From NCBI GenBank assembly GCA_964014485.1, contig CAXHAT010000003.1:30359-94358 (forward strand): DNA of 64,000 nucleotides. The letters run 5' to 3'. Below the pieces are notes generated by a model, which made no database searches, was not told the DNA's origin, and saw nothing but the letters and a program-made list of their open reading frames with translations. The position numbers and the translations under genes were made by a program. Of the stretch, positions 25,917-55,602 are shown piece by piece. The DNA comes from an uncultured Deferribacteres bacterium (GTDB lineage Bacteria > Zhuqueibacterota > Zhuqueibacteria > Zhuqueibacterales > Geothermadaptataceae). Within the stretch, counting starts at the first letter, position 1. Each line of letters begins with the position of its first letter.

Positions 25917-25989
25917 TCCCGAGTAGCTCAACCGGCAGAGCGGGTGGCTGTTAACCACTAGGTTGTAGGTTCGAGTCCTACCTCGGGAG
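25917..25989 (+). tRNA. tRNA-Asn (GTT)
   Basis: Acceptor TCCCGAG/CTCGGGA+G, D arm GCTC..GAGC, anticodon arm GTGG-CTGTTAA-CCAC, T arm GTAGG-TTCGAGT-CCTAC; CCA not encoded. Confidence 0.97.
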
Positions 25990-27534
25990 CATAATAGGAC
26001 GTGGGTCAGCTTTTTTCGGAAGGCTGGCCTTTTTTGTTTGATATTCTCTGTTCGTAACCGCAAGAATATCAAATGGTTGTGTGTATGTGGGGATCAGCTT
26101 GCCATGCTTCCACAGCGAGTTCGAGAATACAAAATTTAACAGCTTTCGTTTCTCCTCCATTTCCTGTTTTTCGTATAATTGTACGGCTTTTTGAGACAAT
26201 TCTAGAATTTGAGCGCCATCATCGAGATAGGATTTGTTGGCGTTTTCATATTTTGCAATTTTTTGAAGGATTTTGGCTTGCTCCACTCTCCATTCTTCGC
26301 TTTTGCTTTTGAAAAATTCCTGCGTGATATTGCCATCAAGTTTGTCGACATACATCGCGTCAACGCGATTTTGAAGCAGCTTGTATCTTAGTTGCAGTTT
26401 TTCGATCATCTCGTCGTGAAATTTTTTCTCATCCTTATGACTTTCTTTTAAGGCTGTTACAACCCAATCCAAAACTTCGGCATCCATTCTGATAGCCCGT
26501 AATGCCTGTGCAAATTGCCTTGCCAACTCCTCTTCACGAACAAACTTTTCCGGACATTTGCCTTTACTGCCTGTGCAATGATAGTAAATGTACTTCTTTT
26601 TCTGAATTTCAGCCGTCAGTGTGCAGCCGCAATGACCGCAACTTACAAGGCCCTGAAAAGCCCAACGATGCTTCTGTTGTCGGGTCTTCCGTCGTCCCTT
26701 GATCTCCAACACATTTTGAACTTTCTCGAATAGTTCTTTCTGAATGATCGGCTCATGCACGCCTTCATAAAGCTTGCCCGTCCACTTAAATTCTCCGTGA
26801 TAAATCGGATTCTTCAAAATTTTATGCACGATACTTTTGTGAACCGTCTTATCCGTATTTCGATAAGTCATGCCTGCCGCAACGGCCTTATGGGTCACTT
26901 GCTTCAGCGAGTAATTACCGGTTGCATACCACTCGAAGAGTTTTCTGATCATGGGAGCAACAGCAGGATCAGGTTGAATGATACGCTTGCCGTTGCATGT
27001 GACATTGATGTAACCAAGCGGTGCGTGACCGGGATAAATGCCTTGTTGCGCTTTTTCAAGCATTCCTTTCTTGGTCTCTTCTGAAAGATTGTCAATATAG
27101 TTTTTCGCCATCAGTACTTTGATGCCGTGAATCAGCTTTTCCGATGAACGTGAATCGTTCGAAAGAATGCAATTCTCTTTCACGAAATGAATTTCTAAAT
27201 CCAACTCGTCAAGCGTCACCCAATCTTTCAGATTTCTGTATAGCCTGTCCGTCTTCTCAACCAGAATGGTTCTGCAAGGCTCGGCTATACTCTTGTTCCT
27301 GATTTGTTTTCGGAGATAATTCACCATAGCTGAGAAATTTGTTCGTCCAGATCGCTTGGCAGTTTCGACATCGACGTACTTCTGAGCGATGATGAAGCCC
27401 TTTTCAGTCGCATATGAGTTAAGCAGTTTTAATTGCGAAGGGATTGAATAACCTTCTTTTTCCTGCTCTTTTGATGATACGCGAGCATAAATCACCGCGT
27501 TTGGACGCTGTAATGCGCTACTCGAATTCTTCAT
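25978..27534 (-). CDS. large serine recombinase (integrase)
   Basis: YARVSS..Q...YSI..Q, DRL.RN, recombinase domain, CGHCG...YY.C......C zinc ribbon, coiled coil. Confidence 0.95.
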   Translation of the reverse strand: MKNSSSALQRPNAVIYARVSSKEQEKEGYSIPSQLKLLNSYATEKGFIIAQKYVDVETAKRSGRTNFSAMVNYLRKQIRNKSIAEPCRTILVEKTDRLYRNLKDWVTLDELDLEIHFVKENCILSNDSRSSEKLIHGIKVLMAKNYIDNLSEETKKGMLEKAQQGIYPGHAPLGYINVTCNGKRIIQPDPAVAPMIRKLFEWYATGNYSLKQVTHKAVAAGMTYRNTDKTVHKSIVHKILKNPIYHGEFKWTGKLYEGVHEPIIQKELFEKVQNVLEIKGRRKTRQQKHRWAFQGLVSCGHCGCTLTAEIQKKKYIYYHCTGSKGKCPEKFVREEELARQFAQALRAIRMDAEVLDWVVTALKESHKDEKKFHDEMIEKLQLRYKLLQNRVDAMYVDKLDGNITQEFFKSKSEEWRVEQAKILQKIAKYENANKSYLDDGAQILELSQKAVQLYEKQEMEEKRKLLNFVFSNSLWKHGKLIPTYTQPFDILAVTNREYQTKKASLPKKADPRPIMLPR

Positions 27535-27823: not shown

Positions 27824-30052
27824 CTATTCGGCGTCGCTCACGCGACAGTAAGAATTCCGAACAAATTCTTTAGCCAATTTTTCAGCCTTCATACGCTCAT
27901 ACCCGCCATCAAATTCCAGGATTGCGGCGCGTTCGTTATACGCTTCCCGCCATTTATCCGGCCACGTTTCATACTTATCAGGCAAAGTCGTGATTTCGAC
28001 CTGATGATTCGTTTTTTTACTACCGACACGAGTGATTTTCGCAGGAGGGGGTTTGTACCTTCCGGTTTCGTTTGCAACCCTGCAACCCTTAAGCTGTTCA
28101 ACAGTAGGCAAGAGACTTGATTTTTCAGGTAGAGGGTCGCCGATCACTAATTGTGCAGCTCGGCCTTTGCGACTTTCAAGATTCTTCAAATAGCCATGCT
28201 CAATGGCGACGTGAGTTCGTCGCAGGGTTGTTGATTTATCTAAAGACAGCTTTTGGGATAACGCTTTAATGGTGACGGAATCTTCTTTATGCTCGATGAG
28301 TTCTTGCACCGCTTCTACTGTCTCTCTGACCGTTGCGGAAACCGAGACTTCAATGCCTTCCGCGAGTATGTTGACAATCAATTCACGAACAGATGTATAA
28401 TCCTGGAAAGTCGCGATAATGTCTCCATCTTCATTACGTTCTCGGTTGACCTGATGGAGTAAAGCGTGAGACTTTATCAGGTTCAAAAGCAATGAAAAGT
28501 CGCGACGCAGCCTCAATGCAACCGGCGGGATCAAGGCGGCAAGATCGCGCGCATATGGAATTTTTACTTTATGCTCTGCCAATTCAAGCCATTCCTGAAA
28601 AGCAACCCAGGGTGTAAGATCGTAACTCTCTTTTCGCTCTTCCGCCAGCGCGAATAAAATTTCCCTCGTATGATCCGGCGTATCCGTGACATTTACGGTA
28701 AGAAATCGCGTCTCATTTTCAGGATGCAGGCGAACGGCAGTCGTCGTGACAATCAACCCGGTTGGCCCTTCACGAACGATCATCCTGGCTCTCAATCCTT
28801 TTGACGTCTTTTCCACCGTCTCGTAACGAACCCGCCCCTCGCTCAACAATGATCTGATCAAGTACGTCGCAAATTCACCTTTCATTCCCGCAGCTTCATA
28901 AATGACGAGGAAACGATGCTCAAGCGGCTCCGTCGAATAGGCCAATGCACGTTCACTCATCCCGCTCAAAGCATAAAAAGCACTGTCAGGAAATAATTTG
29001 AGCACACGGTCTACAAGATAGGATTTGCCTCCAGAGCTCGGGCCTTTGACAGAAACTGAAACAGGCCTCTGAAGAAATCGGCTGGTAACGGCCAAATAAA
29101 GAAGTTTAGCATGACGGGATTCTCCCACCATTCCGATTTTGCTGAGAACGTCAGTCAATAAACCGAGAATGGAATCAGCTTCCGCCAGATGCCGGCATTG
29201 ATGCCAAAGCGCCTGTATTTTTTCTTCTCTCTCGCGTTGTTCAATTTCAGACCACGGTGCTGCGATTTTAATGGCCGCTTCCCAGGCGTTTGCAAAATTT
29301 TCAGGGTTCGCCATATGGAGTTCTGAGACGTCTTTAGCGTTTTCGAACTGAATGAGCCAGATGTGATTCCGAATAGACGATTTCGTGATCCACTCGACGA
29401 CCGCATCACCGCCACTGTCGGGCTCTATGATCACATAGATTTTTTCGATGCCGTCAAAATATTTCCCCCACGGCTCCTGCCAAGTATTGGCGCCCGGAAG
29501 ACCAATAGCCGGAATATTGTGCAGCCACAATGTTTGTGTATCACTCTCTCCTTCACAGAGTACGATATACCCGGTGCGTTTAGCATCAGCCATTTTCCAT
29601 AATCCGTACAGCGACAGCTTCGAGCCTTTTTTCCAACGAAATCGATTGTCATCGTCGGCAGACCTGGTTAATCCCGTGCGAAATCTGACGGCGGTCTCTT
29701 CTCCTGATTCATTGTAATATGGTATTCGCACCGCAGGTTTTCCCATGTACTTGATCTGAGTCGTCCCCAGTTTTTGTAAGAATTTGACCGGAAGTTTTTT
29801 CTTCGCGGAATAGTCGTCAAGTGTACAACCGCCCGTGGGTTGCAGGGTTGCAGTGGAATTTCCCGGGATATGCGCCCTCCCCGTTTGTGTGCGAATATGT
29901 TTCCCGCAAGCGGGATGAAAACATTTGCCGATGGCGTCATCGCTCTTTATCGAAAACTTCTTTTTACCGCAAAACGGACACTCAACTTTTTTACCTGGGC
30001 GACCTGAGATGTTATATTGATCGCGAAGAATCTGAGATACTGAGTAACTCAT
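27824..30052 (-). CDS. Zn-finger + TOPRIM primase fused to P-loop ATPase/helicase-like domain
   Basis: CPFC...C...C, LCEGESD...DSGG TOPRIM, GPSSGGKS Walker A, C-terminal helical region and ERAAILEFDGG tail. Confidence 0.85.
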   Translation of the reverse strand: MSYSVSQILRDQYNISGRPGKKVECPFCGKKKFSIKSDDAIGKCFHPACGKHIRTQTGRAHIPGNSTATLQPTGGCTLDDYSAKKKLPVKFLQKLGTTQIKYMGKPAVRIPYYNESGEETAVRFRTGLTRSADDDNRFRWKKGSKLSLYGLWKMADAKRTGYIVLCEGESDTQTLWLHNIPAIGLPGANTWQEPWGKYFDGIEKIYVIIEPDSGGDAVVEWITKSSIRNHIWLIQFENAKDVSELHMANPENFANAWEAAIKIAAPWSEIEQREREEKIQALWHQCRHLAEADSILGLLTDVLSKIGMVGESRHAKLLYLAVTSRFLQRPVSVSVKGPSSGGKSYLVDRVLKLFPDSAFYALSGMSERALAYSTEPLEHRFLVIYEAAGMKGEFATYLIRSLLSEGRVRYETVEKTSKGLRARMIVREGPTGLIVTTTAVRLHPENETRFLTVNVTDTPDHTREILFALAEERKESYDLTPWVAFQEWLELAEHKVKIPYARDLAALIPPVALRLRRDFSLLLNLIKSHALLHQVNRERNEDGDIIATFQDYTSVRELIVNILAEGIEVSVSATVRETVEAVQELIEHKEDSVTIKALSQKLSLDKSTTLRRTHVAIEHGYLKNLESRKGRAAQLVIGDPLPEKSSLLPTVEQLKGCRVANETGRYKPPPAKITRVGSKKTNHQVEITTLPDKYETWPDKWREAYNERAAILEFDGGYERMKAEKLAKEFVRNSYCRVSDAE

Positions 30053-30246
30053 GCCGCGCCCCCGTTTCCTTTTTTATCGCGGTCCCTTGTGCATGAATCA
30101 GTTCGGTCCCACTCCGCCAACACTTTAAAAAAACCACAGATATTTTCTACGATGACGCGAGCGTCTTCTTTCGTCGGTTCAAAGTCGCCGTATTTTCTCC
30201 AAAAAAGCACTGTTTGATCGATCAGATTCGTAGTATTGCCAGCCAT
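30049..30246 (-). CDS. small hypothetical protein coupled to the primase gene
   Basis: ATGA overlap with the primase start; W........EDAR.I.EN..GFF..LAEW. Confidence 0.65.
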   Translation of the reverse strand: MAGNTTNLIDQTVLFWRKYGDFEPTKEDARVIVENICGFFKVLAEWDRTDSCTRDRDKKGNGGAA

Positions 30247-30382
30247 GATGTAAGCCTTCAAAATAAAAACCCCCGAAAGGCTCTACCCATAGAAGCATTT
30301 TTCGGGGGTTATTGATTGTGCAAGCGGACTTGCAACAGATTGTTGAGATTTTGGGCTGGGTAGCGCCTTCGATGAGAAAGGC

Positions 30383-30422
30383 GCTACATTTCGTGTAGCA
30401 ATGCTACAAACCGTGTAGCAAT
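30383..30422. promoter_or_regulatory. tandem palindromic operator-like sites (GCTACA-N5-TGTAGC x2)
   Basis: gctacatttcgtgtagcaat gctacaaaccgtgtagcaat, 20-bp period, upstream of the replication operon. Confidence 0.65.
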
Positions 30423-30441
30423 TTAAACTTTTTTGAAAAAT

Positions 30442-32517
30442 CTAATCGGTGTGCCACTCAAATGGATTGTCAGGGTTATAAACGAGAGTCCGGCCGGTTT
30501 GAATACTTGACCTTAAATGTCTCGCCAATATGTCGTGATACGATGAAATCTTTGTAATTGATCTCGAAATTGCGCGACTTACACTTTTGCGGATTCGCTC
30601 CTGTGTGCTTGATACCTTTCGAGGTCGACCTTTTTCTGTAAGGGCGGATTTCAAATATGCGACAATCCGCTCTTTCTGAAATTTTAATCCATCCAATTTT
30701 CCGACATCATTATTCTCCTCGGTTTCTTGTATTTCCTCTTCCAAATCCATAAGTTCTTTTTTCAAGTTTTCCGCACCTTCCTTCGATATAAGAAAATCAG
30801 GCAGGTCATCATCTCCAACACGCATCCCGAACTCAGAAAGCGACTTTTTGTCCGTTTGAAATCCCGTTTGACGACCGCTAAAAATTGATCCATGTACTTC
30901 TTGATAAACAGTGAGTACATGAACTTCTTTCCTGAGCGGCTTTTTCAACAGAAAAGCGATGTACTCCAGACCAATACTATGCTCCATGTTGATTGTTTTG
31001 TTTTCAAATCGCAGCGTCCATTTCTGACCATCTCTCCTAAAAATCGACTGGTTTAACACTTCATCCGGGGCTTCTGATAGCGACGCCTTCTCTTTTGGCA
31101 GGCACAGTCGTATCAGGCAATTCAAAGGCAAGTCGTCCAAAATAATATCGCGCGCGTGGTTCTTCACCGCCCCTTCAAGAACTTCCTGGATTTGTTGGCC
31201 GTGACGCTGATGAAGCTCAAAAATATCGCTTCCAACCTGATCCGGCGTTCCATCCAGGAACTGGATGACTCTGCTCGCCTCGCCAAATTTGGTAAAAAAG
31301 TTGAAATCTGAAATCATCGAAAGCTCTTTTGCCGTGCGAACATAAGATTCGAGCAAGGTGATTTGCTCCGTATTTTCTCTCTTTCCGGTTAGCAAATCAA
31401 CATTGTAGATTTCATCGGGATCGTCTTCAGCATACCGGCTTGCCAAAGCGGCAAAACGGCGATCAATACATTGCGAGCATTTTCCGCAGTGCGAATGGGC
31501 TTTCGTCCTCTCCCATGTGCGGCTGCAACTTATGGTATGCTTAATCAATTCCCGGCAGCCCGAATCGCCTATAAAATCGACCACATCGGTTTTCGTTTTC
31601 CACATAAACGGATTTTCGATTGTAAACCTCTCGTTTGTCACAAGACTAAAAAAGTCAGAAAAGGCACTCAACGCTTTCGGGTGCGTCGTTCGGCTGGCGC
31701 GCGAACCGACAAGTTGTTCCGAGATCGGTAAATTGATGCTCGTGACGCCGTTTTCATAAAACTTTAGCGTGGACAGTTTGAAAGCGTGTGCGACCGTCGC
31801 ACCTAAAACAGCATAGAGAAACGAGCGTGTTCTTTGCGTGTGCTCCCGTCCCAAATTCTTGTCTTTATTGACCCAAATGGGCACATGAAAAACAGTCGCT
31901 GGCTTGCAATATGTTTTCAGATCGTGAACAAGCTCTCTTCTGACACCAATAGATTTTGGCGTTGACGTGTGCGTAACCAAAAGTGTGTTTTTATGATTGT
32001 TCACGCATTCTTCTATCGCGCCGCCCAAAGAATCGAGCCCGCCGGAAAACATAATAACCGCGTTGGGTTTCGCGCCAATAATCTCTTCCTGTCCAAAAGC
32101 GAAAGATTGTCCCGGCGTTTCCACTTTTTCAAGTTTGGAGAATTGAAAAACATAATTGTCATCAGAGAGAAATTCCAATGCGTCAATTAAGGCGGGATAA
32201 ATCTCGGAAGATGACCAAAAACCCGGATTTCGAACAGGCAGGTGAAACGCGAAGGAGCGCCGCCAGTTTCCGCCGATGCCGGGAGAAGTCGATCCGCCGC
32301 GCGTGAAGCTCTGATCCGCGGAATACACATAAGCCGCGATCTCGAGTAAATCAGTAAAAATGCTTGAAATTCGACTTGCCAGGCGTTTGCTCAAATCATG
32401 GGTCAACAGGAAAACATTCGGATTTTTGCCGTGCAGATTGAGGCGAACGACGCTGTCATCCTGAAATGAGCCGGCCGGTTCCACGCCGCTGCAATAAAAT
32501 ATACGCTCACGTCCCAT
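30442..32517 (-). CDS. QueC-family (QatC-like) PP-loop enzyme fused to a C-terminal putative DNA-binding domain
   Basis: DLLEIAAYVYSAD, FSGGLDS, QRTRSFLY, RTTHP, NPF.WKTK, SCS...HCGKCSQCIDRR; extra ~200 aa FRRDG..W.LRF...GLEYIA.LL..P...ERIRKSVSRAI.....I......LARHL..SI.TG....Y.P. Confidence 0.85.
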   Translation of the reverse strand: MGRERIFYCSGVEPAGSFQDDSVVRLNLHGKNPNVFLLTHDLSKRLASRISSIFTDLLEIAAYVYSADQSFTRGGSTSPGIGGNWRRSFAFHLPVRNPGFWSSSEIYPALIDALEFLSDDNYVFQFSKLEKVETPGQSFAFGQEEIIGAKPNAVIMFSGGLDSLGGAIEECVNNHKNTLLVTHTSTPKSIGVRRELVHDLKTYCKPATVFHVPIWVNKDKNLGREHTQRTRSFLYAVLGATVAHAFKLSTLKFYENGVTSINLPISEQLVGSRASRTTHPKALSAFSDFFSLVTNERFTIENPFMWKTKTDVVDFIGDSGCRELIKHTISCSRTWERTKAHSHCGKCSQCIDRRFAALASRYAEDDPDEIYNVDLLTGKRENTEQITLLESYVRTAKELSMISDFNFFTKFGEASRVIQFLDGTPDQVGSDIFELHQRHGQQIQEVLEGAVKNHARDIILDDLPLNCLIRLCLPKEKASLSEAPDEVLNQSIFRRDGQKWTLRFENKTINMEHSIGLEYIAFLLKKPLRKEVHVLTVYQEVHGSIFSGRQTGFQTDKKSLSEFGMRVGDDDLPDFLISKEGAENLKKELMDLEEEIQETEENNDVGKLDGLKFQKERIVAYLKSALTEKGRPRKVSSTQERIRKSVSRAISRSITKISSYHDILARHLRSSIQTGRTLVYNPDNPFEWHTD

Positions 32518-33289
32518 TGACCCGCCCCCGCCGTGTCAACTCACTTCTGATTTTCTTCAGCGCGAAATAGACAAATCCTTTTGCGCTCTGATGATCGATA
32601 CCGCCTTCGAAAGTGTTCTTGGAAAACCAGCCGCCGGCAAATTCTTCCATAATCCGCGCCGTTTGGCGGCAATGCACTTCGAGCGCTTTTTTGAATTCGC
32701 CATGCTTATCGATATTCGCAAAGCGTTTTCCCGGCCCGACGTGATTCGAGAGTTCCCGGCTCAAGTAATAGGTCAAATAACGTTTGGTCACACGAGAAAA
32801 GAAATCGTGAGCAATGTGGCTGAATTGCTTCTTGTATGAAAACCCCTTAAACGCACCCTGAACGCTTTCAGCGGAAACACCGAATAGACTGTCTGTTTTT
32901 GCGCCCGCGACTGCGGTCAAGCTCTCCGCCGCGGCGAGTTGGGCGATTTCGCTCAAATCGTTGCGCCGACCATATTCTTTGTTTTTCTGATCGACAATGT
33001 TTGAAAATGCGGAAACGATTTCCAATAAAGAGGGCGAATCTGAAACGGCAAGATCAAGACTTCTAAGCGCGCTGGCGAAGTTTTTCTCGTGGGCGGCGGC
33101 GGGAATTTGTGTGAGCAGCCAGAAGGCGTGAACAAAGGCGGGATCGTCAGGGGCTTGTCTTAACCCTTTTTTTGAAGCGTCAAGAACGGCGGCGGCGATT
33201 TCTGACGCCGACGAACCGTTGGCAACAAGCCCGACGACAGTTTGCCAGCTCTCTGTTTTGGGAAGATTTCCCAGGCGAAGATGCCCCAA
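32507..33289 (-). CDS. QatB-like helical partner protein with N-terminal Gly (MGHLRLG)
   Basis: TTG start; overlaps the QueC-like gene start by 11 nt; all-helical; Gly at position 2. Confidence 0.6.
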   Translation of the reverse strand: MGHLRLGNLPKTESWQTVVGLVANGSSASEIAAAVLDASKKGLRQAPDDPAFVHAFWLLTQIPAAAHEKNFASALRSLDLAVSDSPSLLEIVSAFSNIVDQKNKEYGRRNDLSEIAQLAAAESLTAVAGAKTDSLFGVSAESVQGAFKGFSYKKQFSHIAHDFFSRVTKRYLTYYLSRELSNHVGPGKRFANIDKHGEFKKALEVHCRQTARIMEEFAGGWFSKNTFEGGIDHQSAKGFVYFALKKIRSELTRRGRVNGT

Positions 33290-33382
33290 ATTCTTTCCTC
33301 ACTCAATCCTGAATATAACACGATCACTATTGGCTATTAATACCGGCAGGATATGTAACGCTTTTGAGTATGTTGCCCTAAT

Positions 33383-34333
33383 TTATTCGAGATCAGGTTC
33401 ACCAACGCCTATCTCAGGCGCTATTTGGCGTTCTTCTACAGAAGTCTTTTTCACAAATTTACTAAAAAGAAAATCACCGAGAGGTACTGACAACAATCCA
33501 ATAACAGCGCCGCCTAAGAAATCTTCTACATGAAGGGAGATAGGTAGATTTAAATTACTCAGTCGTCGAGTCATCAAGATTGTGACGATTGACACGATGG
33601 ATCCAGAGCAGAAAATCGCAAATCCGTCAACAATCATTGTAAGCGATCCTTTTTGTAATGTTCGTTCCTTTCCGCCCCCAAGTTTGACATTTCGCCAACT
33701 GTACGAAATTCTGAATATCGCGAGTAAAAAAGCGCCCATTACGCCCCCGCGCAACAACGCACTTAACGGCGGTTCTAAATTTATATTCTGGGTTCTATAT
33801 TCAACCCTGAGAGGTTTATTGGGTATATCCTCTCGATACTTTATAAAGGTTATCAACGAGTATTCGCCTGGTACAAACAAAAGTGTACGGAAAGTGGAAA
33901 GCTCTTGCCAAAGACCCACTTCTTGAATTTCCTTAATACAGCGAATAGAACCGTTTGGCTCAAGCTTTTGTGCCAAACAGGAGATGCTATCGTCATATTG
34001 CCGTATAAGTCTTAGGGAATTAGGCGGTTTGAGGGCAATTTCTTCAATCTTAAATGCTTTGTCCGTCCGGTTCTCAATCGTAATTATCACAGATAAAGGC
34101 GCAGTTATGACCTTACTCGTTTGTAGCGTTTCAATAGTAATCGCTAAAGGCGATTCTAAATTGGGATCGATTTGTTCCTGCGACTCTTGAGAATTCTCTT
34201 GACCTAAAACACAATCAATTGCGAGACTAAAATGAACCAAGGTCGCTCCAAAAAACATTATGATAAAGCTATCAAGTCTTCTTTTATTATTGTTTTTCAC
34301 AACTAAGTGCATTTTTAAGTCTCTCAAGTTCAC
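33383..34333 (-). CDS. hypothetical membrane protein (exported beta-rich domain + ~3 C-terminal TMs)
   Basis: Hydrophobic N-terminal segment and three hydrophobic helices near the C-terminus; AT-rich. Confidence 0.65.
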   Translation of the reverse strand: MNLRDLKMHLVVKNNNKRRLDSFIIMFFGATLVHFSLAIDCVLGQENSQESQEQIDPNLESPLAITIETLQTSKVITAPLSVIITIENRTDKAFKIEEIALKPPNSLRLIRQYDDSISCLAQKLEPNGSIRCIKEIQEVGLWQELSTFRTLLFVPGEYSLITFIKYREDIPNKPLRVEYRTQNINLEPPLSALLRGGVMGAFLLAIFRISYSWRNVKLGGGKERTLQKGSLTMIVDGFAIFCSGSIVSIVTILMTRRLSNLNLPISLHVEDFLGGAVIGLLSVPLGDFLFSKFVKKTSVEERQIAPEIGVGEPDLE

Positions 34334-35132
34334 GCTTTGTCGAATTAATTGTCGCTTTGCTTAAATCAATATTTCGGTCTCTCGGTCTGCCTTTTTCTAA
34401 CCAGCTTCCTTTCGTATCAAGCCAAGTCTTTAAAAAATCATTGTATGTTAGCCATTCTTCCGCGCACTCTAAAGTGCCCTCACAGAACTTTTTACGCAAC
34501 TCTGAGTACGATTTTGACGCCCCCTCCACCCAGCTAGGACATTTCCACAACCACTCTTTCCAAAATTTAACAGTTCGAGAACTGATGTACACGACAGGAA
34601 TTTCCATATAAATTGAAAAAAGGTCCTTAATTCCTTCAGTTTTGCCTGGACAGCCAGACGGCGAACCGCGTGCAATAATTGAATTGCCTAGAAAACGTAT
34701 TGCACTTTGAATTCTATCATATCTGGGCTTTAGCGTATCACGCAAATCGCTTGGCAACGCCTCGTACCAACTGATATATTCTAACCAATACTGAACTGCT
34801 AAATCACCTAATTCATATTTCTGGCATTTGTTCTGTGTACTTTCGGCTCTTTTGAGATTTATCAAAGCGATTTGCCATCTTAATGCTTCTTGGTCTCTCA
34901 CATCAATCGCTTTTGCTCTCGAACATTCATCAATGGCCTTCTCAAGTAATTCACTGGCCCGAGTAGGATCTGTAGAAATAATACTTCGAGCTTCCTGGAT
35001 CAATTCGATACAAAGTTGATCTTTGGCTTTGGTGGGAGTATCTTGTGCCTGAATTCTGGCGGCTGGATACATCAAAGACAACATGTATACAAATAGGAAT
35101 TTGGGACATTTTACATTCATGCGACGCCTCAA
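34287..35132 (-). CDS. hypothetical secreted helical Cys/Trp-rich protein
   Basis: Signal peptide (IQA|Q), about 8 Cys in the mature part; AT-rich. Confidence 0.65.
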   Translation of the reverse strand: MRRRMNVKCPKFLFVYMLSLMYPAARIQAQDTPTKAKDQLCIELIQEARSIISTDPTRASELLEKAIDECSRAKAIDVRDQEALRWQIALINLKRAESTQNKCQKYELGDLAVQYWLEYISWYEALPSDLRDTLKPRYDRIQSAIRFLGNSIIARGSPSGCPGKTEGIKDLFSIYMEIPVVYISSRTVKFWKEWLWKCPSWVEGASKSYSELRKKFCEGTLECAEEWLTYNDFLKTWLDTKGSWLEKGRPRDRNIDLSKATINSTKRELERLKNALSCEKQ

Positions 35133-35560: not shown

Positions 35561-35607
35561 TTTAATTTTCTCCTTGAAAAGTGAGGTGTTATGAAAATCG
35601 AATTATC

Positions 35608-35721
35608 TCACGCAAAGCCGCAAAAACTCGCAACGAGCGTTTTGGAAGAACTTTGCGAAACGCTCGTTGCGAGTTTTTGGAAGAACTTTGCGAAACCTTC
35701 GCGACTCTGCCTTTGCGTAAA
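35608..35721. repeat. palindromic element family B (TCACGCAAAG...CTTTGCGT)
   Basis: Related copies at ~36716-36775, 38046-38242 (tandem pair), 55513-55602 and a partial at ~52887. Confidence 0.75.
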
Positions 35722-35854: not shown

Positions 35855-36274
35855 ATGAGTGTGAGCATAACCCTGCAAGTGCCGCCTTCCCTTTACCGCC
35901 TGGCGCGGCAAACCGCCGATGTGACGTCCAAACCGGTTGAGCAAGTGCTTGCGGACGTCCTTGCCGCCGCCAGTCCTTTGAGCGACGATTTACCGCCCGA
36001 TTTGCAAAAGAAACTGGACGCTCTTGCGCTGCTCAACGACGAAGCTCTTTTGGAACTCGCACGTAAAACAATTCCCGCGGCAAAGCGCCGACGATACGAC
36101 CAACTGTTAGAAAAGAACAGCTCAGGAACTTTAACACAAAACGAGCGCGCGCAATTGAGCGCCCTGCGACGGGAGAGCGAACTTCTCACACTGAAAAAAG
36201 CCCACGCTTACGCCCTGCTTAAATGGCGCGGCTACGCCCTCCCCGCCCTTACGGAACTTCCCGTGCCGCAATGA
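35855..36274 (+). CDS. putative antitoxin paired with HNH nuclease
   Basis: ITL.VP..LY.., L..L.DE.L, LLEKN..G.LT..E..QL..LR......L.KA.A..LLKWRG; ATGA overlap with the HNH gene. Confidence 0.7.
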   Translation: MSVSITLQVPPSLYRLARQTADVTSKPVEQVLADVLAAASPLSDDLPPDLQKKLDALALLNDEALLELARKTIPAAKRRRYDQLLEKNSSGTLTQNERAQLSALRRESELLTLKKAHAYALLKWRGYALPALTELPVPQ

Positions 36275-36696
36275 CTTCGTCGGAAAGCCTCGCCAAACTG
36301 CGCCGCGGACTTGCCGCTCAAGCGGATTATCGCTGCCGTTACTGCCAAACTTCCGAAAGACTCACCGGAATCAGCCTGACGCTCGATCACATCATACCGC
36401 GCGTAATGGGCGGTGATGATAAGGAAAGCAATCTTTGCGTCGCTTGCCGTCCCTGCAATGAATTCAAAGCTGCTCAAACTCATGCTTACGATCCGATTTC
36501 AAACGAAAACGTCCCGCTATTCAATCCCCGCGCCCAAAGCTGGCGGGAGCATTTTGAATGGGGCCGGGACGGTCTTCAAATTATTGGAAAGACCGCAACG
36601 GGACGCGCAACCGTTGAAGCGCTAAAACTCAACCGAGACATCATCGTTTACGCCAGACGCCGCTGGGTAAAAGTCGGCTGGCATCCGCCGGAATAA
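36271..36696 (+). CDS. HNH endonuclease (toxin-like)
   Basis: CRYC..DHIIP...GG.D...NLC.AC..CN.FK, LFNPR...W.EHF.W. Confidence 0.9.
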   Translation: MTSSESLAKLRRGLAAQADYRCRYCQTSERLTGISLTLDHIIPRVMGGDDKESNLCVACRPCNEFKAAQTHAYDPISNENVPLFNPRAQSWREHFEWGRDGLQIIGKTATGRATVEALKLNRDIIVYARRRWVKVGWHPPE

Positions 36697-36891
36697 CAGC
36701 AGTTTTATTTGCCCTCCCACAAAAATGCAAAGTTTCTCAAAAAATAATCTTTGCATCTCTGCGCCTTTGCGTGAAATCTTTAACCGGATAGACTGTTTCG
36801 ATCCAAAAGTTAGAAATTGCAATGTCCAACTTATTGTATTATTTTGAGCATACAAGACAACGTGAAACGAACCCATGCGAAAGGAAAAGAT

Positions 36892-37358: not shown

Positions 37359-37589
37359 ATGGCGAAACAACGTATAGAATACGATTCTCCGATTGAAGCC
37401 CTGGTCGCTTTGGCAAAACGCCTGAATGTATTTGAGTTGCGCCACAAAATAAACTCCGAGGATTTCTTCGATCAGTACGCCAAAGGAAAATTGGATGACA
37501 GCATCGATTTCGTGGAGTGGTCTAACGATTACCGGCATTTTGTCGATCTGAAAACCGAATTGGAAGCCTCGCTGCGACGTGTTGCATAG
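37359..37589 (+). CDS. TumA-like antitoxin
   Basis: L..L...L..FE.R....SE.F...Y..G.L.D..DF.EW...Y. Confidence 0.75.
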   Translation: MAKQRIEYDSPIEALVALAKRLNVFELRHKINSEDFFDQYAKGKLDDSIDFVEWSNDYRHFVDLKTELEASLRRVA

Positions 37590-37977
37590 CGCGCTGCAAA
37601 AATATCTCGACGACATCGAGAGCATTGTACGTACGCTCACGAATGTTCATATCGAGAAGTATGTTGAAGAGATTCTTTCATTCGAGCGTTTGAATGTGCG
37701 CATGAGACTGCGTTTTTCGAATGGCTGTTTGCTTGAGATTAATGAAGCCGTCGTCGTTGCGAACGAAAAAGTTGAAACGCCGGGCTATCGTCACCACTTT
37801 CAAGATGCGAAACAAGCGTTGATCTTTCGCTATGACAACGCGCCGCATTTCCCCAACTTGCCGACCTTTCCAAATCACAAACACCTGCCCGGAAAAACCG
37901 TAGCCGCCGCAAAGCCAACGATTCCTGAAACAATTGCCGAAGCCTACACAGCTGCGGAGGCTATGGCAAAATCTTGA
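37579..37977 (+). CDS. DUF6516 / TumE-like toxin
   Basis: YRHHFQD....LIFRYDNAPHFP.L.TFP.HKH. Confidence 0.8.
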   Translation: MLHSALQKYLDDIESIVRTLTNVHIEKYVEEILSFERLNVRMRLRFSNGCLLEINEAVVVANEKVETPGYRHHFQDAKQALIFRYDNAPHFPNLPTFPNHKHLPGKTVAAAKPTIPETIAEAYTAAEAMAKS

Positions 37978-38045
37978 TCATTCTCCCGGCCTTCAAACGA
38001 TGCAAATCGAAAGCTTCATAAGCGTCTTTGCACGAGCAAAAATAT

Positions 38046-38242
38046 TCACGCAAAGACGTGAAGCCGCAAAGGAACACGCAAAGTTTTTCTAAAAGAATTT
38101 CTTTGCGAAACCTTGGCGTCTCTGCGCCTTTGCGTGAGAAAAAGTTGCTCAAAAGTTTATTCACGCAAAGACGCGAAGCCGCAAAGGCCACGCAAAGTTT
38201 TTCTAAAAGAATTTCTTTGCGAGTCTTTGCGTCTCTGCGTGA
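38046..38242. repeat. tandem duplicated palindromic element family B
   Basis: Two ~80-90 bp units TCACGCAAAGACG(T/C)GAAGCCGCAAAGG...GCGTGA. Confidence 0.85.
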
Positions 38243-38787: not shown

Positions 38788-41700
38788 TTAAGAATATAAG
38801 ATCGTTACATAAACTGCCTGACCTGAAAAACGCCAATTGGATATAAGTTCAATATTCGAATCGTTCCATCGTATCGTGTAAATGTCGTTTCTTTCTCTGA
38901 AAATAGTTCGATCCGATATAAATAAATTAGGTATGACAGAAAAGATTCTTTTATCACTGTGAGCTTTTGAAATCCCGTGTGCAATAGTTAGCTTGGGATC
39001 CACTCCCAGATCTATCCAGGGAAATGTCCCAGATAATCTTTTCGCATAAATTGGCTTCCCGTCTTCCAAATAGCCGACCACAGGCTTGGAGCCGTGCATG
39101 ACTTTTGTAAAAGCTGCGTGTCCGTCTCTGTTCATAAATGCGCTGATTCCGCCGCCTACGCCGCAAGCGATGCTACCTTCCGCATAAACATCCCAGGTAT
39201 GAACGCCGCCGCCCCAACCGGAGGGATAACCGGCATCCGGTTTATACCCGTTGGTACCTATTCTTCCAACACAGTAGGTGTCTCCGCTGCCGCCCGCGAC
39301 TTCTAGCAGGGGCTTCCAACCCGTGGAATAAACGCCGAATGCGTCCTGATCCCAAACATGCATCGCTAAGGTGTTTCGCCCCATCGCGCCTTTTGCCTTG
39401 TGCAAAAACTGGTAATCGCCGTCAGTTCCGAATTTGATCAGGTTTAGTCTGTCGTCGCCGCGCAGGCCAAAATCGCTGGCAATGTGCAGCGCCTTTTGGC
39501 CGCCCGTTTTGCCAATGTTTAGTTTAAAGTCATTCGGCCCGCCGCCAAAGCCGGTATTTCCGCTCGCGTGATCAATCGTTAACGCCAGTTCCGATTTGGA
39601 GGACCAAACATACCATTGGTTACCATGCGCCGTGGTACCATTGTCGAATTTCCAATCGCCGCCAACATGATAGCGGATCGCATTCCACCCAGCGTCTTTT
39701 GGTGAATCCGTGGTTAGGAAAACGCCTGCAGCATCATTTTGAACATGAAGCTTCGTCGCCGGTGCGGTTGTGCCAATACCGACATTGCCCGTTACCGTCA
39801 AGCCCGCTTTGGCGCCTTGGTTGTCGCCGATTTCGATGCGGCGCTGCCCTTCTCTTCCACTGCCCGCCTTGCCGCCGCCGGCTAAGCGGATATATGCTTC
39901 CGATTCACCGGTATTATGAAATTGCAGCCAGGCTTGTCTATTGACTCCGCCAGAATCTTCCGCAAGTGACATGGTTGGCTTGACCGGTGCGCAACACTGA
40001 CTCGCGCCGCTGCCACTCACATCCAATACGGCGCCGGGCGTTATTGTACCTACGCCGACGTTGCCGTCCTGCCTGATAACCATGCGCGGCGCTCCGCCCC
40101 TTGGACGAAATTCAAGAAGATGGTAATCGCCTTTTTGTGCGATATCCCAATAATTGCCTTTTTGTCCTTTCGGGCCTTGAATACTCAAAAACGCGTATTC
40201 ATCTTTGTTGGTATTGCGGATCCGAATATCTGCGCGATTACTCTCAACATGCAGTCTTGCTTCCGGTGCTGTCGTACCGATGCCAATACTACCTGTAACC
40301 GTCAGGCTTGCTTTGGCGCCCTGATTGTCTCCGATTTCGATACGACGCTGTCCTTCTCTGCCGCTGCCTGCTTCGCCGCCGCCGGCCAAACGAATATATG
40401 CTTCCGCTTCACCATGATTATGAAATTGCAGCCATGCCTGCCTATTGACTCTAATAGAATCTTCCGCCAGTGAGATTGTTGGTGGAACCGGTGCGCAACA
40501 CTGACTGGCGCCGCTGCCGCTGACATCCAGTGTCGCGCCGGGTGTTGACGTCCCGATACCAACTTTGCCGTCGGAAGAAATCTTTAGTCCTGATTTTGTG
40601 TTGCTCCATGGCGCAATAACAAAATCCGTCTTTGAATCAGGTTTGCCGTTTGAAAAGATTATGCCCGTGTTGCCGTTTAAAGAAATAGGGTTGTACCCGC
40701 CGCTGCTCAATTGGGCGACCAATCCCATATTCCACTTGTTCCCCGTGCCGTTCAGAATAATCGACATGTCGTTGATTTTGCCCTGAGCGACGGATAAACT
40801 CGCCCCCTTGCCAGCTTTCCCAATGGCAACATTGTCATGGAAGGATTGATTGCCGGAAAAGCTGTTTGCGCCCCGTGTTGCAACTTCATGCCAGGCAGGA
40901 TTGCTGCTTTCCTTTTTTGCCGCTACTTTTCTGAAAAACAGCCTGTCATTGACCGCATATGAAGCGGCAATTTGTAGTTGATGGTTGTTCTCGATATTGG
41001 AGTGTCTCGCCGTAATCAAGTGGCTCCACTCGTGGCTATTGTCAGGAACGTCGCCGGGTTCTTTCTGGTTGTGGCTTTGGTAAAAACCGGATTTCAATGG
41101 CGCGCCGAAATCCGAGATGCTATGTTCATAGCCGAGAAAAGCGTTGCCTTCTATATCGAGCTTTGCGCCCGGCGTATATGTGCCAATGCCAACATTGCCG
41201 TCTTTTTGGATCACCATTCTTGCCGCTGGCGCGACAACCTCCCCGGACTTTGTGTTTCCTCCTTGCGCAAAGAAATCTATTCTTCCCCACTGGGATACCA
41301 TGCCGGAATAGCCGTAATCTTTGTCATGCGTATAGGGCGTGAATAACTTATGGCGATTCTCCCCGCTTTGCATAACCGCTAGATTCGATCCGAAAACCCC
41401 GCGTCCGCTTGAAGAACCGGAGATGCTGGCGCCAAAATGAGCGCCCACGATGAGTTGAGCTTGCGGCTCGTGCATTCCAATCCCGACATTACCGTCCTGC
41501 TGAATAACCACCGCTGATCCTGAGACGCCGTGAGCAACTTTGGGATTGAAATAAAACTTGTTCCCCGCCTGGCTGCTGTTTCCAACTTCCCAACGCCCAT
41601 GCTTAGTCTCATAAAATCGAAAAAACTGATGCAACTTTTCTCCGCCCTTGAGCTGGACGCGCAGATTGCCATCAGATTCGAAATGCGCGACTTCTTCTTT

Positions 41701-42921
41701 TTTATCTAACCTGCGAACGTGAAGCCTGTGGTTTGGCTCTGTTACCCCGATGCCCACATTTCCATTCGCATTTACGCTCATTCTTACCTTGTTTTGTGGC
41801 GCTTCCGCCTGAAAAATTGGCGTAGTGCCGCTGGCCGACGTAGCAACGCGCAAGCCCCAGCCCTCAGCATGGTTCTGGTCAATGAAAACAGCAGGTTGTT
41901 TTGGGGCATTATCGACGATTGTTAGTTTTTCTTTTGGCGCGGTCGTCCCAATGCCAACATTGCCCCTTTTCAAGGTGATCCCATCATGCCAATCGGAGTC
42001 CTGGTACCATTGCAAAGCTCCGGTGCTGTTGCCAATGGCTTTCAAGCGAACGCCGAAATTGCCGCCGAATTTTGTCTGAACAAAACCGCCGTCTTTCCCA
42101 TGAGCAATCACCCCCTTTGCTTCCGAATCATCCGCCCCCGTCCAAATGTCGCCGTCGACATGCAATTTTGCTCTCGGCGCAGTCGTTCCAATCCCCACAT
42201 TACCGCCGTCCGGCTGTAAAACCAGCGAACCGTAGCCGTTTATCCAGGCGTTGTCCTGATCTTTGTAGCGCAAACCCATGGTCATCGTCGTCCCCGTTCC
42301 CGGAGCGCTGGTCATCTTGAAGGTTGGGTTCGCCTCCGGCGTGTTGTTCAACGGGCCGTTGAGGTGCAGACTCGCCCCCGGCTCCATCGTCCCCACGCCA
42401 ACCCGGTCGAAATAGCCATAACCCGTCGCCCCGGACATGCGGCGCACATGCGGCGCTTCGCCATCATCGAGACGCTCGATCTTGCCCTCCTTGAGCAGCA
42501 CGCGCGCTAGAATGATCTTTTTGCCTATATGCTCGGCAATCTCGCTTGCAGATATGAGTTCGATCTTGTTGCCTTCGATCACCCGATGAATGAAAGTCGG
42601 CAAGTCTTCATCTTCCGGTTCGTAAGTTTCGTCATAGCTGATCGTGACAAAATGATGACCGTCGGCAAGTTCAGCCAACTCCAACAGTTCCGGTGCTTCG
42701 AGTTCCAGTTCCTGGCCGGAGTTGTCCATCGCCAGTCCTGGCGTGATTTTGACGTCTTCGTTGTTTTCCTTTTGTACGTTCAGCCCGAAGATGACGCCCC
42801 AGGTATGCAGGCCGCGGTTGTGCAAAAGCCGCATTTCCTGATGATAGCTCTGATCATGAGCGTGATCATCCCATTCAGCGGGAAAGTTTTCATAATAATG
42901 GACGCGGTTGAACTTTGGCAT
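38788..42921 (-). CDS. eCIS tail fibre A (Afp13-like), 1377 aa
   Basis: N-terminal R.HYY...Q.YH...R.LHNR.LHTWGV..GL.V attachment domain; many GNVGIGT..P...LHV repeats. Confidence 0.88.
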   Translation of the reverse strand: MPKFNRVHYYENFPAEWDDHAHDQSYHQEMRLLHNRGLHTWGVIFGLNVQKENNEDVKITPGLAMDNSGQELELEAPELLELAELADGHHFVTISYDETYEPEDEDLPTFIHRVIEGNKIELISASEIAEHIGKKIILARVLLKEGKIERLDDGEAPHVRRMSGATGYGYFDRVGVGTMEPGASLHLNGPLNNTPEANPTFKMTSAPGTGTTMTMGLRYKDQDNAWINGYGSLVLQPDGGNVGIGTTAPRAKLHVDGDIWTGADDSEAKGVIAHGKDGGFVQTKFGGNFGVRLKAIGNSTGALQWYQDSDWHDGITLKRGNVGIGTTAPKEKLTIVDNAPKQPAVFIDQNHAEGWGLRVATSASGTTPIFQAEAPQNKVRMSVNANGNVGIGVTEPNHRLHVRRLDKKEEVAHFESDGNLRVQLKGGEKLHQFFRFYETKHGRWEVGNSSQAGNKFYFNPKVAHGVSGSAVVIQQDGNVGIGMHEPQAQLIVGAHFGASISGSSSGRGVFGSNLAVMQSGENRHKLFTPYTHDKDYGYSGMVSQWGRIDFFAQGGNTKSGEVVAPAARMVIQKDGNVGIGTYTPGAKLDIEGNAFLGYEHSISDFGAPLKSGFYQSHNQKEPGDVPDNSHEWSHLITARHSNIENNHQLQIAASYAVNDRLFFRKVAAKKESSNPAWHEVATRGANSFSGNQSFHDNVAIGKAGKGASLSVAQGKINDMSIILNGTGNKWNMGLVAQLSSGGYNPISLNGNTGIIFSNGKPDSKTDFVIAPWSNTKSGLKISSDGKVGIGTSTPGATLDVSGSGASQCCAPVPPTISLAEDSIRVNRQAWLQFHNHGEAEAYIRLAGGGEAGSGREGQRRIEIGDNQGAKASLTVTGSIGIGTTAPEARLHVESNRADIRIRNTNKDEYAFLSIQGPKGQKGNYWDIAQKGDYHLLEFRPRGGAPRMVIRQDGNVGVGTITPGAVLDVSGSGASQCCAPVKPTMSLAEDSGGVNRQAWLQFHNTGESEAYIRLAGGGKAGSGREGQRRIEIGDNQGAKAGLTVTGNVGIGTTAPATKLHVQNDAAGVFLTTDSPKDAGWNAIRYHVGGDWKFDNGTTAHGNQWYVWSSKSELALTIDHASGNTGFGGGPNDFKLNIGKTGGQKALHIASDFGLRGDDRLNLIKFGTDGDYQFLHKAKGAMGRNTLAMHVWDQDAFGVYSTGWKPLLEVAGGSGDTYCVGRIGTNGYKPDAGYPSGWGGGVHTWDVYAEGSIACGVGGGISAFMNRDGHAAFTKVMHGSKPVVGYLEDGKPIYAKRLSGTFPWIDLGVDPKLTIAHGISKAHSDKRIFSVIPNLFISDRTIFRERNDIYTIRWNDSNIELISNWRFSGQAVYVTILYS

Positions 42922-42985
42922 GGGTTCCTCCCAAGGGTTTAATTCAATAAATCAGAAGTTTAAGAGTAACAGTGACAAGCCTTAT

Positions 42986-47278: not shown

Positions 47279-47382
47279 GGGTTCCTCTGAAAGTTAAAAT
47301 TAAAAATCGAATGCATGAGAGACGAACCCATTAGGCAGTCGGTCATGCAAACTTCTAAGCACATAAATTGAGGTCCAGTAAA

Positions 47383-47946
47383 CTATTCAAAATTCGGCAA
47401 CGGATGTGGGAATTCGATATCATAAAAAGTGTGCGCAGGCTTAATCTGGTCGAGAACGCGATGCATCTTGATTATATCAATTTTCACATATTTGTATTTA
47501 TCATTCTCATCTGGTTTGGCAAGTGATTCCCACGTAACTTTAAACTCATGTGCATTTAAATCATCAGATTTTTCATGAATTTTCACATTCCTAAAACGTG
47601 GATAGGAATTGAGTATAAATTCAAGACCTTCGACAGTGCCGCGTTCCGCGTAAATCCGGTTTATATGACTGGTGAGAAACCGCTGCAAGTCTTCGGGCCA
47701 GTCACTATCGAGATCGAAAGCGAACCAACCCGCCAACCAAGGTAGAAAATCTCGTTGAACAGCCCAGGCGTCAAATAACCAGGGCAATTGATCGATTTCC
47801 TTTTCAAAGTTGAAGAAGAGCGTCTCGAAGATTTTCAGGAATTGCTCGATGAATGGCGTCTCGCCGTCCGCAGTTGCGGCGTCTTGGAACAAATCGGGCA
47901 GATAGTCGAGAAAGCGTTCATTTACAGCCATAATTAAATCAATCAA
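47383..47946 (-). CDS. phage tail protein I-like baseplate wedge (Afp12-like)
   Basis: YLP.LF, FL.IFE, FLPWLAGW, IY..RGT..GL, KPAHT. Confidence 0.88.
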   Translation of the reverse strand: MIDLIMAVNERFLDYLPDLFQDAATADGETPFIEQFLKIFETLFFNFEKEIDQLPWLFDAWAVQRDFLPWLAGWFAFDLDSDWPEDLQRFLTSHINRIYAERGTVEGLEFILNSYPRFRNVKIHEKSDDLNAHEFKVTWESLAKPDENDKYKYVKIDIIKMHRVLDQIKPAHTFYDIEFPHPLPNFE

Positions 47947-55489: not shown

Positions 55490-55512
55490 CGGTGACCGTG
55501 AATCATTTTTTC

Positions 55513-55602
55513 TCACGCAAAGGCGCAGAGACGCAAAGGTTTCGCAAAGGAAAATTTTAAAAACCTTTGCGCGTTCCTTGGCGGCTTCGCGTCTTTGCGT
55601 GA
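55513..55602. repeat. palindromic element family B
   Basis: TCACGCAAAGGCGCAGAGACGCAAAGG...CCTTTGCG...CTTTGCGTGA. Confidence 0.8.

Follow-up and report, generated by a model that had tools for sequence, protein, structure and literature searches.

The window analysed here is a 64,000-nucleotide stretch of contig CAXHAT010000003.1 (assembly GCA_964014485.1) from an uncultured Deferribacteres bacterium, and our subject is a QatB/QatC-like gene pair carried there by a small integrative element, in which tRNA-Asn is followed by a serine recombinase, a primase-like gene, a 70-residue open reading frame (ORF) and then the QatB/QatC-like module. As the original prediction had claimed, the module consists of two overlapping ORFs, encoding proteins of 260 and 691 residues; both are on the minus strand, as are all features of the module and of the region that follows it. 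The gene for the QatB-like partner (32507..33289; 260 residues) encodes a predicted all-helical protein with the N terminus MGHLRLG and a 12-residue tail. Because a GAGGA box lies 6 nucleotides 5' of its TTG codon, we take this as the start, and hence Gly as the residue at position 2. Further upstream is a promoter-like site, TTAATA-17-TATATT with an extended TG (33312..33340), which is a consensus match only. The QatC-like gene (30442..32517; 691 residues) overlaps the partner gene by 11 nucleotides. Its product joins a QatC-like core (residues 1–470; 31108..32517), made of an N-terminal extension, a PP-loop/QueC fold, a zinc site and a partner-contacting helical extension, to a C-terminal domain (residues ~490–691; 30445..31050) whose predicted fold is an OmpR/PhoB-like winged helix, interrupted by an insertion that comprises a disordered stretch and then a coiled-coil hairpin. 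Past the stop codon lie tandem GCTAC-N7-GTAGC palindromes with a 20-nucleotide period (30382..30421), P1 at 30403–30421 and P2 at 30382–30400, and beyond them an intrinsic terminator precedes the replication genes.

The 691-residue protein matches QatC by several measures. It hits the PADLOC QatC profile over residues 44–385 (8.9e-53) and the solved QatC chains 9vlk_A (1.7e-28) and 9zee_B (1.3e-20), and it scores 197.7 bits against the NCBIfam QatC model (NF041925; residues 45–381), which is under the equivalog cut-off of 280. Both the SGGLDS PP-loop and the C..CGxCxxC..RR zinc site that had been reported for it are present. The former occupies residues 158–163, and in an alignment of 30 homologues S158–S163, T278, H279 and P280 are invariant, as are the zinc-site residues C331, C344, C347, C350, R353 and R354. 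Libby et al. (PMC13329287) list as QatC motifs D(x)4R..W-R, ExG, HP, P(x)4TK and a conserved Tyr after the zinc site. These QatC-specific motifs are kept, with D68, R73, W85, R86, R87, E255, G257, H279, P280, P303, T308, K309 and Y371 invariant or nearly so, although the spacer before the Trp of the first motif is 11 residues in the window enzyme versus the 7 listed for QatC. The Tyr/Asp with which QueC and Cap9 read 7-carboxy-7-deazaguanine (CDG) is replaced in the window enzyme by the QatC-type S/T-R-T-T-H-P: its S-R-T-T-H-P aligns with the S-T-R-T-T-H-P of 9vlk_A and 9zee_B, the first position being Ser in the window enzyme and Thr in the family consensus.

Alternatively, the protein might be a metabolic QueC, supplying preQ0 for queuosine synthesis, and the assembly offers something in favour of this. 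In these 465 contigs, which are 97% complete, the QatC-like gene is the sole PF06508 match (window positions 31453–31671, G000:C3:61811-62029, inside the gene), whereas the assembly does contain QueD, Tgt and a QueE-like gene. The protein, however, matches the last third alone of the Pfam QueC profile (PF06508), scores 29.6 against TIGR00364 versus a cut-off of 150.3, has the CDG-recognition Tyr/Asp substituted as in QatC, and is encoded on a mobile element by a gene translationally coupled to a QatB-fold partner; moreover, according to Libby et al. (PMC13329287), E. coli QatC does not complement a queC deletion. We find a metabolic role scarcely credible. QueD (PTPS), the QueE-like open frame (85.6 bits) and Tgt lie elsewhere in the assembly, so that a canonical queC is either absent or hidden in a gap of the assembly. 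Since these three are there, a supply of CDG in the host is plausible.

By sequence, the partner matches nothing in Pfam, PADLOC or NCBIfam, nor in the PDB by phmmer or by a 30-sequence profile. Its AlphaFold2 model (pLDDT 85) is all-helical, with the first helix beginning at residue 13. The top Foldseek match of this model is QatB chain 9y01_A of the P. aeruginosa QatBC crystal (probability 1.00, TM 0.53/0.62, E 0.049), most remaining rows having a TM of ~0.25 or lower. VIA-align superposes the model on the ten-helix globular fold of this chain with Z 14.3, aligning 204 of 215 residues at a root-mean-square deviation of 3.4 Å, while no more than Z 5.6 is reached by the next chain that is unrelated; QatB was absent from the list returned by a wide VIA search of representatives with the same model, and it was VIA-align over Foldseek's own hits that showed it. 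QatB generally has a long disordered tail of 30–90 residues, with 63 unresolved residues in PaQatB (Gao et al., PMC13279940), and the models indicate that the partner is a QatB in which this tail is shortened to 12 residues. We consider it very probable that both window proteins are homologous to QatB and QatC, the pair being a real, well-conserved variant of QatBC.

The original prediction had taken the partner for the modified substrate of the enzyme, and Gly2 is indeed conserved. Among the best 120 of 744 partner homologues, 118 retain it; 112 begin with MGH and 5 more contain MGH inside an over-long gene call, the rest being one VGH, one MGF and one MDH, with Asp at position 2. In the 30-sequence alignment of the partner M1, G2, H3 and L6 are invariant, and R5, L9, P10 and W15 nearly so. 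We then predicted the complex of the partner with enzyme residues 1–480, each with its own alignment, in three runs with three controls. The ipSAE was 0.90, 0.91 and 0.91, against 0.01 for the best control, with contacts that agree between runs to at least 90% and a partner pLDDT of 88. The mark we used for this score is reached by 116 of 157 solved pairs and by 2 of 215 mismatched ones, a calibration that is only rough for runs with own alignments. In the predicted complex, partner residues 2–12 lie on the enzyme and touch its residues 73–86, 227–228 and 259–277, partner helices 170–186 rest on enzyme loop 265–277, and partner residues 118–126 rest on enzyme helices 404–419, which are both interfaces published for QatBC (PMC13279940). 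Because QatBC structures have already been solved, this prediction expresses a likeness to QatBC and is no proof of binding by the window copy. The models nevertheless make a 1:1 QatBC-like complex likely, and by analogy with Cap9/CdnD and QatBC, Gly2 may, after removal of Met, be the acceptor of an ATP-dependent N-terminal modification.

In QatBC, Gly2 and the catalytic serines are essential, and attempts to reconstitute the reaction failed (Gao et al., PMC13279940). Conjugation of a deazaguanine by QueC paralogues, which the original prediction had called established, is only partly so for QatC: one study detected an NDG-modified QatB peptide by liquid chromatography–tandem mass spectrometry, yet the reaction was not reconstituted in vitro, and two studies (one of them Gao et al., PMC13279940) found no QatC activity with CDG and propose another substrate. 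With the QatB–QatC core of QatABCD from P. aeruginosa and E. coli (PDB 9y01/9y02, 9vlk, 9zee), the window pair shares the QatC motifs, SGGxDS, the zinc site with RR, the N- and C-terminal enzyme extensions, the QatB fold with its N-terminal Met-Gly, the order of partner then enzyme in overlapping genes and, in the predicted 1:1 complex, the same two interfaces. It differs in several respects. QatA and QatD are missing; the partner has no detectable sequence similarity to QatB and carries the motif MGH (MGH-x-R-L-G), not MGTS, besides the short tail; the enzyme is ~225 residues longer than QatC, with the putative winged-helix domain at its end, and stays below the equivalog cut-off; and the module sits in the early region of an integrative element or provirus with a conserved leader. 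Cap9–CdnD of type IV CBASS, a case of protein N-terminal deazaguanylation, is alike in that a QueC-family enzyme takes the Gly2 amine of its partner into the active site. Unlike there, the window partner has a QatB fold rather than that of a CD-NTase/nucleotidyltransferase, there is no Cap10, and the QatC-type Ser/Thr-Arg-Thr replaces the CDG-reading Tyr/Asp; no CBASS family was matched in the PADLOC scan of the window or among the scanned neighbours of related loci. Our literature searches on QatB/QatC, deazaguanylation and QueC-like prophage repressors brought up no fusion of QatC to a DNA-binding domain, no MGH partner and no link to a phage leader, while supplementary tables, which were outside this search, may list such neighbourhoods.

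We scanned one genome per species for relatives of the partner, which gave 217 matched stretches; the best 80 loci, which represent many phyla, were kept. A QatC-like gene lies directly downstream of the partner in 72 of 81 loci (window included), usually with an overlap of 4–40 nucleotides; seven of the nine other loci have less than 2 kb of downstream DNA, and two (L056 and L074) are true exceptions. A word-indexed search put the size of the family at 744 partner clusters and 2,369 enzyme clusters. Large serine recombinases (26) or tyrosine integrases (17) are found in 43 of the 81 loci, and another 36 have replication-type genes downstream (primase-like, PriCT_1/DUF3987, AAA_24, DUF669 or ParB-methylase). 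Pfam, PADLOC and NCBIfam scans of the other ORFs of the window element revealed no QatA, QatD, CD-NTase or que-pathway family. Likewise, there was no QatA or QatD among 23 conserved neighbour clusters scanned, or among 88 same-strand neighbours (230–900 residues, within 3 kb) from 56 of the 80 related loci, a scan outside which lay 83 further neighbour ORFs (opposite strand, >900 residues, or past the size limit). The claim that neither gene accompanies the pair thus holds in the window element and at the loci scanned. As to the minimal module that the original prediction had set apart from classical Qat, QatB and QatC by themselves are already known to protect against one phage, lambda-vir (Gao et al., PMC13279940). 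At eight loci (L021, L043, L066, L048, L050, L061, L007 and L008) the module adjoins BREX (PglZ, BrxL, BrxA), a UG13 reverse transcriptase with HEC-05, AbiEi, type I restriction–modification, ZacA or HmaC-like genes.

What sets the window enzyme apart is its C terminus. Enzyme residues 402–485 are common to all family members, and beyond them the family divides into tail classes, the window's class comprising 27 of 59 clusterable tails. The extra stretch of ~200 residues that had been reported is present and has no Pfam match. Its AlphaFold2 model (pLDDT 82.8) consists of a three-stranded sheet and two helices (model residues 22–73), a disordered stretch and coiled-coil hairpin (78–156), and then two helices and a small hairpin. 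Foldseek matches of this model are weak (E at least 0.1), but AfsR and the DNA-binding domains of OmpR/PhoB proteins make up about half of the rows listed. When the model was compared with 48,161 chains, VIA-align placed GlnR and CssR at the top, followed by BaeR, ArlR, CadC, CpxR, KdpE, VicR, VanR, ToxR and AdeR. The GlnR domain 8hml_B aligns with Z 8.1 and a root-mean-square deviation of 2.9 Å over 92 of 95 residues (model residues 21–215), and more than ten OmpR/PhoB members match as whole domains with Z 7.1–8.1. In the model, the DNA-binding fold that the original prediction had proposed here takes the form of a winged-helix type. Compared with OmpR/PhoB winged helices (Trans_reg_C; GlnR, CadC, ToxR, AfsR), the predicted fold covers nearly the whole domain and differs by an insertion of ~90 residues (the disordered stretch and coiled-coil hairpin), by its lack of a Pfam match and by its candidate sites, which are tandem palindromes rather than direct repeats. 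A winged helix split by an insertion is our best reading of the domain, on moderate evidence.

This domain is not confined to QatC-like proteins. A profile search of 1.84 billion representatives found it in 17,194 clusters, 5,220 of them at 1e-30 or better, and in the 150 clusters listed it is always at the C-terminal end, in proteins of 176 to 1,683 residues; a search of the ESM Atlas with it returned unnamed clusters only. Pfam scanning of 39 sampled carriers revealed 10 with AAA_16 (TPR repeats are also present in most of these, and a cyclase in two), 2 with a cyclase alone, 1 with TPR alone, 1 DnaG-finger reverse transcriptase, 1 helicase, 1 QueC and 23 with no match. The likeness to the C terminus of large ATPase regulators that had been noticed is therefore genuine, since the same domain ends AAA_16/TPR/cyclase proteins. 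In other classes of QatC-like proteins the same C-terminal position is filled by Trans_reg_C (6.3e-12, 1.5e-3), Sigma70_r4_2/GerE (3.1e-9) or HTH_17/MerR (8.7e-5). The winged-helix reading is strengthened by these helix-turn-helix (HTH) swaps and by the constant C-terminal place of the domain on AAA_16/TPR/cyclase proteins. From the fold and the domain swapping together, the C terminus of the enzyme probably binds nucleic acid. One QatC-like protein (L037:12192-12665) ends not in an HTH but in a DpnII/MboI-type restriction-endonuclease-like domain (8.5e-5). The carriers (P0242–P0390) also include standalone proteins of ~180–210 residues, many of 290–560 residues with unrecognised N termini, AAA_16/TPR/cyclase proteins of at least 1,000 residues and the 1,683-residue DnaG-finger reverse transcriptase.

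The tandem palindromes track this C-terminal domain. TGCTACA-N5-TGTAGC occurs twice 3' of the enzyme stop (30382–30420) and nowhere else in the window at 0–1 mismatch; this amounts to 4 strand-matches versus 0.74 expected, none of 100 shuffles reached 5, and a fifth match, with 2 mismatches, is at 54776. Among the related loci, GCTAC-N7-GTAGC, usually paired 20–21 nucleotides apart, can lie no more than 120 nucleotides past the stop codon. Of the 25 loci whose C terminus is of the window's class, 20 have it there, versus 2 of 47 with other classes; after re-clustering of the tails, 22 of the 27 loci of the window's class have it. Two loci of another C-terminal class (L022 and L042) have the palindrome CGCTGTCAATGACAGCG instead, although they share downstream gene families with many motif-positive loci, and in a 14-member class GTCACA-N8-TGTGAC is found in three or four loci. 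The first conserved downstream gene among motif-positive loci belongs to at least six families. We also searched IMG/VR for the tandem pattern, which gave 100 stretches, of which 80 loci were fetched. The C-terminal domain is encoded within 3 kb in only 6 of the 80, by three QatC-like proteins and three proteins of 451 or 418 residues that have another N terminus and the same C-terminal domain (hhalign probability 99.9%). In the main provirus family, the motif comes after a serine-recombinase operon and before the early genes, and a QatC-like protein of 709–718 residues with the C-terminal domain is encoded ~4 kb off, on the other strand, in 5 of 5 records; the 158-residue protein preceding the motif there gave a negative hhalign result against the C-terminal domain (probability 0.14). 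From this co-occurrence we lean, if only just, towards recognition of the GCTAC element by the C-terminal domain of the enzyme, with P1 and P2 as candidate sites. On the viral contigs L143:1608-2963 (which is L095 reversed) and L150:1659-2915, the genes for the 451- and 418-residue proteins, whose N-terminal half is unrecognised, directly precede tandem GCTAC-N7-GTAGC. We rejected att or arm sites of a recombinase as an identity for the palindromes, because the recombinase gene is 2.8 kb away, the tRNA is 4.4 kb away, and the palindromes also occur near tyrosine-integrase elements.

The palindromes belong to a structured RNA leader. Downstream of P1, the leader holds an extended form of what we call hairpin 3 (GUAGCGCCUU-N8-AAGGCGCUAC; 30360..30387), which has GUAGC in common with P2, and an intrinsic terminator (CCCCCGAAA...UUUCGGGGG and a U-run; 30255..30313) before the 70-residue ORF and the primase gene. 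In addition, a long-range helix of 13 nucleotides with 92% complementarity (30277..30369) pairs the segment after hairpin 3 (30357–30369) with the terminator loop (30277–30289). We aligned 16 such intergenic regions and used as controls partners slid by 1–3 columns and 500 shuffles. The local hairpins and terminator are 85.7% paired versus 34–46% when slid, and in 14 of their pairs both partners changed, which 1 of 500 shuffles matched; in the terminator, 9 of 10 pairs are compensatory across the 16 loci. The long-range helix, found by RNAalifold, is 89.7% paired versus 31–50% when slid, with 6 compensatory pairs and a covariation score that none of 500 shuffles reached, and it is kept in the window with a wholly different sequence. 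A GCCUUC..GAAGGC hairpin, the counterpart of hairpin 3, is kept in related loci, the positions flanking P1 covary, and the G-U pairs are consistent with the strand that is sense for the QatC-like gene. The window leader folds at -59.6 kcal/mol (z -5.28) into P1, the terminator and the extended hairpin 3, the last of which takes up the 3' arm of P2. A search of 30150–30500 against Rfam at a permissive threshold gave chance-level rows only (best E 0.37). The covariation shows that the leader is a structured RNA, and its helices are mutually exclusive in a chain: P2 excludes the extended hairpin 3, the extended hairpin 3 excludes the long-range helix, and the long-range helix excludes the terminator. 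By this chain, P1 and P2 held closed would favour read-through. What the original prediction had called tandem operators are real and conserved palindromes, and because they lie between the stop codon and the terminator within this covarying leader, they may act as RNA hairpins, either in place of DNA operators or in addition to them.

Protein-controlled leaders in which an operon is preceded by conserved hairpins, then by helices that exclude one another and an intrinsic terminator, include those of BglG/SacY with their RAT hairpins and of lambda N with boxB. The window leader has no sequence or family relationship to them, and its putative binder would be an enzyme fusion with either DNA or RNA as target. 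In the mechanism that we propose, the winged-helix C terminus would recognise the tandem GCTAC-N7-GTAGC sites just past its own stop codon. Through their occupancy, P1 and P2, acting either as double-stranded operators or as hairpins in the nascent RNA, would select between two states of the leader, one in which the extended hairpin 3 and the terminator form and one in which the long-range helix forms at the expense of the terminator. This choice would set transcription read-through into the primase operon and thereby tie the state of QatB/QatC to the element's replication, or else to keeping incoming relatives repressed. The function that the original prediction had suggested, a switch for the primase operon or a defence response, is likewise an inference. 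Since the domains are of HTH type, DNA is favoured as the target, and since there is covariation, the RNA structure exists. As a whole, the chances seem to us evenly balanced that this is a divergent QatBC module whose enzyme binds the element and gates its early operon. Control of the early operon by the module, taken for itself, we rate a little below that. More speculative still, the QatB/QatC-like pair could be the lysogeny/immunity switch of widespread temperate elements, an enzyme-coupled repressor/antiterminator that acts on the GCTAC leader and is set by N-terminal modification of the partner, in which case the swapped HTHs with their different palindromes would define immunity groups.

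Several observations weigh against a gating enzyme. The association of domain and motif is strong, but the loci in which both occur are related elements, and 20 of 25 versus 2 of 47 does not count independent events. None of 15 more diverse viral records with the generic tandem pattern encodes the C-terminal domain; most of these are fragments, but one is 93% complete. In three fragments, a tyrosine integrase lies upstream of a window-like motif, and no QatC-like gene is visible. P1 and P2 stand upstream of a terminator, and no promoter-like site was found over them on the minus strand. The match to winged helices is middling (Z ~8, Foldseek E at least 0.1) and comes without a Pfam model, and OmpR/PhoB domains usually bind direct repeats. 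In one published study, canonical QatC bound neither DNA nor RNA in electrophoretic mobility shift assays, though canonical QatC is without the extra C-terminal domain. Finally, defence-family matches, including BREX (PglZ/BrxL, BrxA), DRT UG13, AbiEi and type I restriction–modification, lie beside the module in 11 of 56 scanned loci, which fits plain defence.

Plain defence means that the pair is ordinary minimal QatBC anti-phage cargo near the integrase, its C terminus serving that end by sensing invader or own DNA or tethering to it, or by simple autoregulation, while the palindromes and leader are part of the element's own control of its early genes and something else binds them. Besides those neighbours, it can draw on the protection that QatB and QatC alone confer against lambda-vir, on the 74 of 80 viral tandem-pattern loci without the C-terminal domain within 3 kb, and on the finding of Libby et al. 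(PMC13329287) that only ~34% of QatC-cluster genes adjoin qatA or qatD. It is less easily squared with a motif that tracks the type of C-terminal domain and not the downstream genes and that also lies beside proteins with the same domain and a different N terminus, with the transcription-factor-type HTH domains that fill this position in other members, or with the QatC-like gene that the main viral family carries elsewhere in all 5 records tested. We judge plain defence as the whole explanation rather unlikely, but it is a live rival and is compatible with a regulatory role. The leader might instead be a self-contained RNA attenuator or the 3' end of an operon, with P1/P2 bound by a host factor or a small element protein and the link to the QatC-like gene due to shared ancestry. 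Covariation supports a terminator with a competing long-range helix, the G-U pairs fit the sense strand, and in proviruses the leader is found right after the recombinase operon with no adjacent QatC-like gene, all of which would suit such an attenuator. Against it are the six or more families to which the first conserved downstream gene belongs, and the GCTAC/GTAGC arms, which are unvaried in the 16 sequences; arms that never vary point to sequence-specific recognition. We regard a leader independent of the module as improbable.

The chemistry of QatC and the way in which modified QatB stops phages are open questions in three 2026 structural papers, and the roughly two thirds of QatC-cluster genes without QatA and QatD are unexplained. 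In the family described here, nature provides a minimal, short-tailed QatBC with a putative built-in nucleic-acid-binding output and a candidate target site, from which a direct readout of QatBC activity, as binding or as terminator read-through, would follow. It would link protein modification by QueC-family enzymes to gene regulation in mobile elements and, should the switch hypothesis be true, such modification would control the timing of element replication. The unnamed C-terminal domain family, with its more than 17,000 representative clusters, gains a candidate recognition motif.

The rest of the element and its surroundings can be described briefly. The 70-residue ORF (30049..30261, minus strand) is the first after the terminator, has no family match, and its stop overlaps the start of the gene for a 742-residue primase-like replication protein (27824..30052, minus strand), which matches PADLOC RTasDnaG-like (4.4e-7, residues 106–294) and has homologues downstream of the module in 13 loci, window included. 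The large serine recombinase (25978..27534, minus strand; Resolvase, Recombinase and Zn_ribbon_recom domains) has a stop that overlaps the 3' end of the tRNA-Asn gene (25917–25990, plus strand). A search for a direct repeat of the tRNA 3' end found none, which leaves the position of the far end of the element loose; the region 33383–35132, upstream of the partner gene, holds ORFs of 316 and 281 residues without a family match, the first with hydrophobic stretches, and repeats that resemble repetitive extragenic palindromic (REP) elements from 35596 onward suggest that the element ends before there. These short intergenic repeats on CACGCAAAG / CTTTGCGTGA (35596–35627, 36746–36774, 38043–38229 and 55501–55602), some of them in tandem 114–115 nucleotides apart, have the look of host REP-type repeats. 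Just past the element are an HNH endonuclease ORF (36223–36696) and a TumE-family toxin ORF (37579–37977). Beyond these, at 38788–50035, two very large paralogous ORFs of 1,377 and 1,430 residues, one of which was tested and has no Pfam match, contain 12 copies of a ~44-nucleotide motif and 300-nucleotide blocks that are 81–95% identical, and they adjoin a P2-type tail gene (Tail_P2_I) and Baseplate_J genes.

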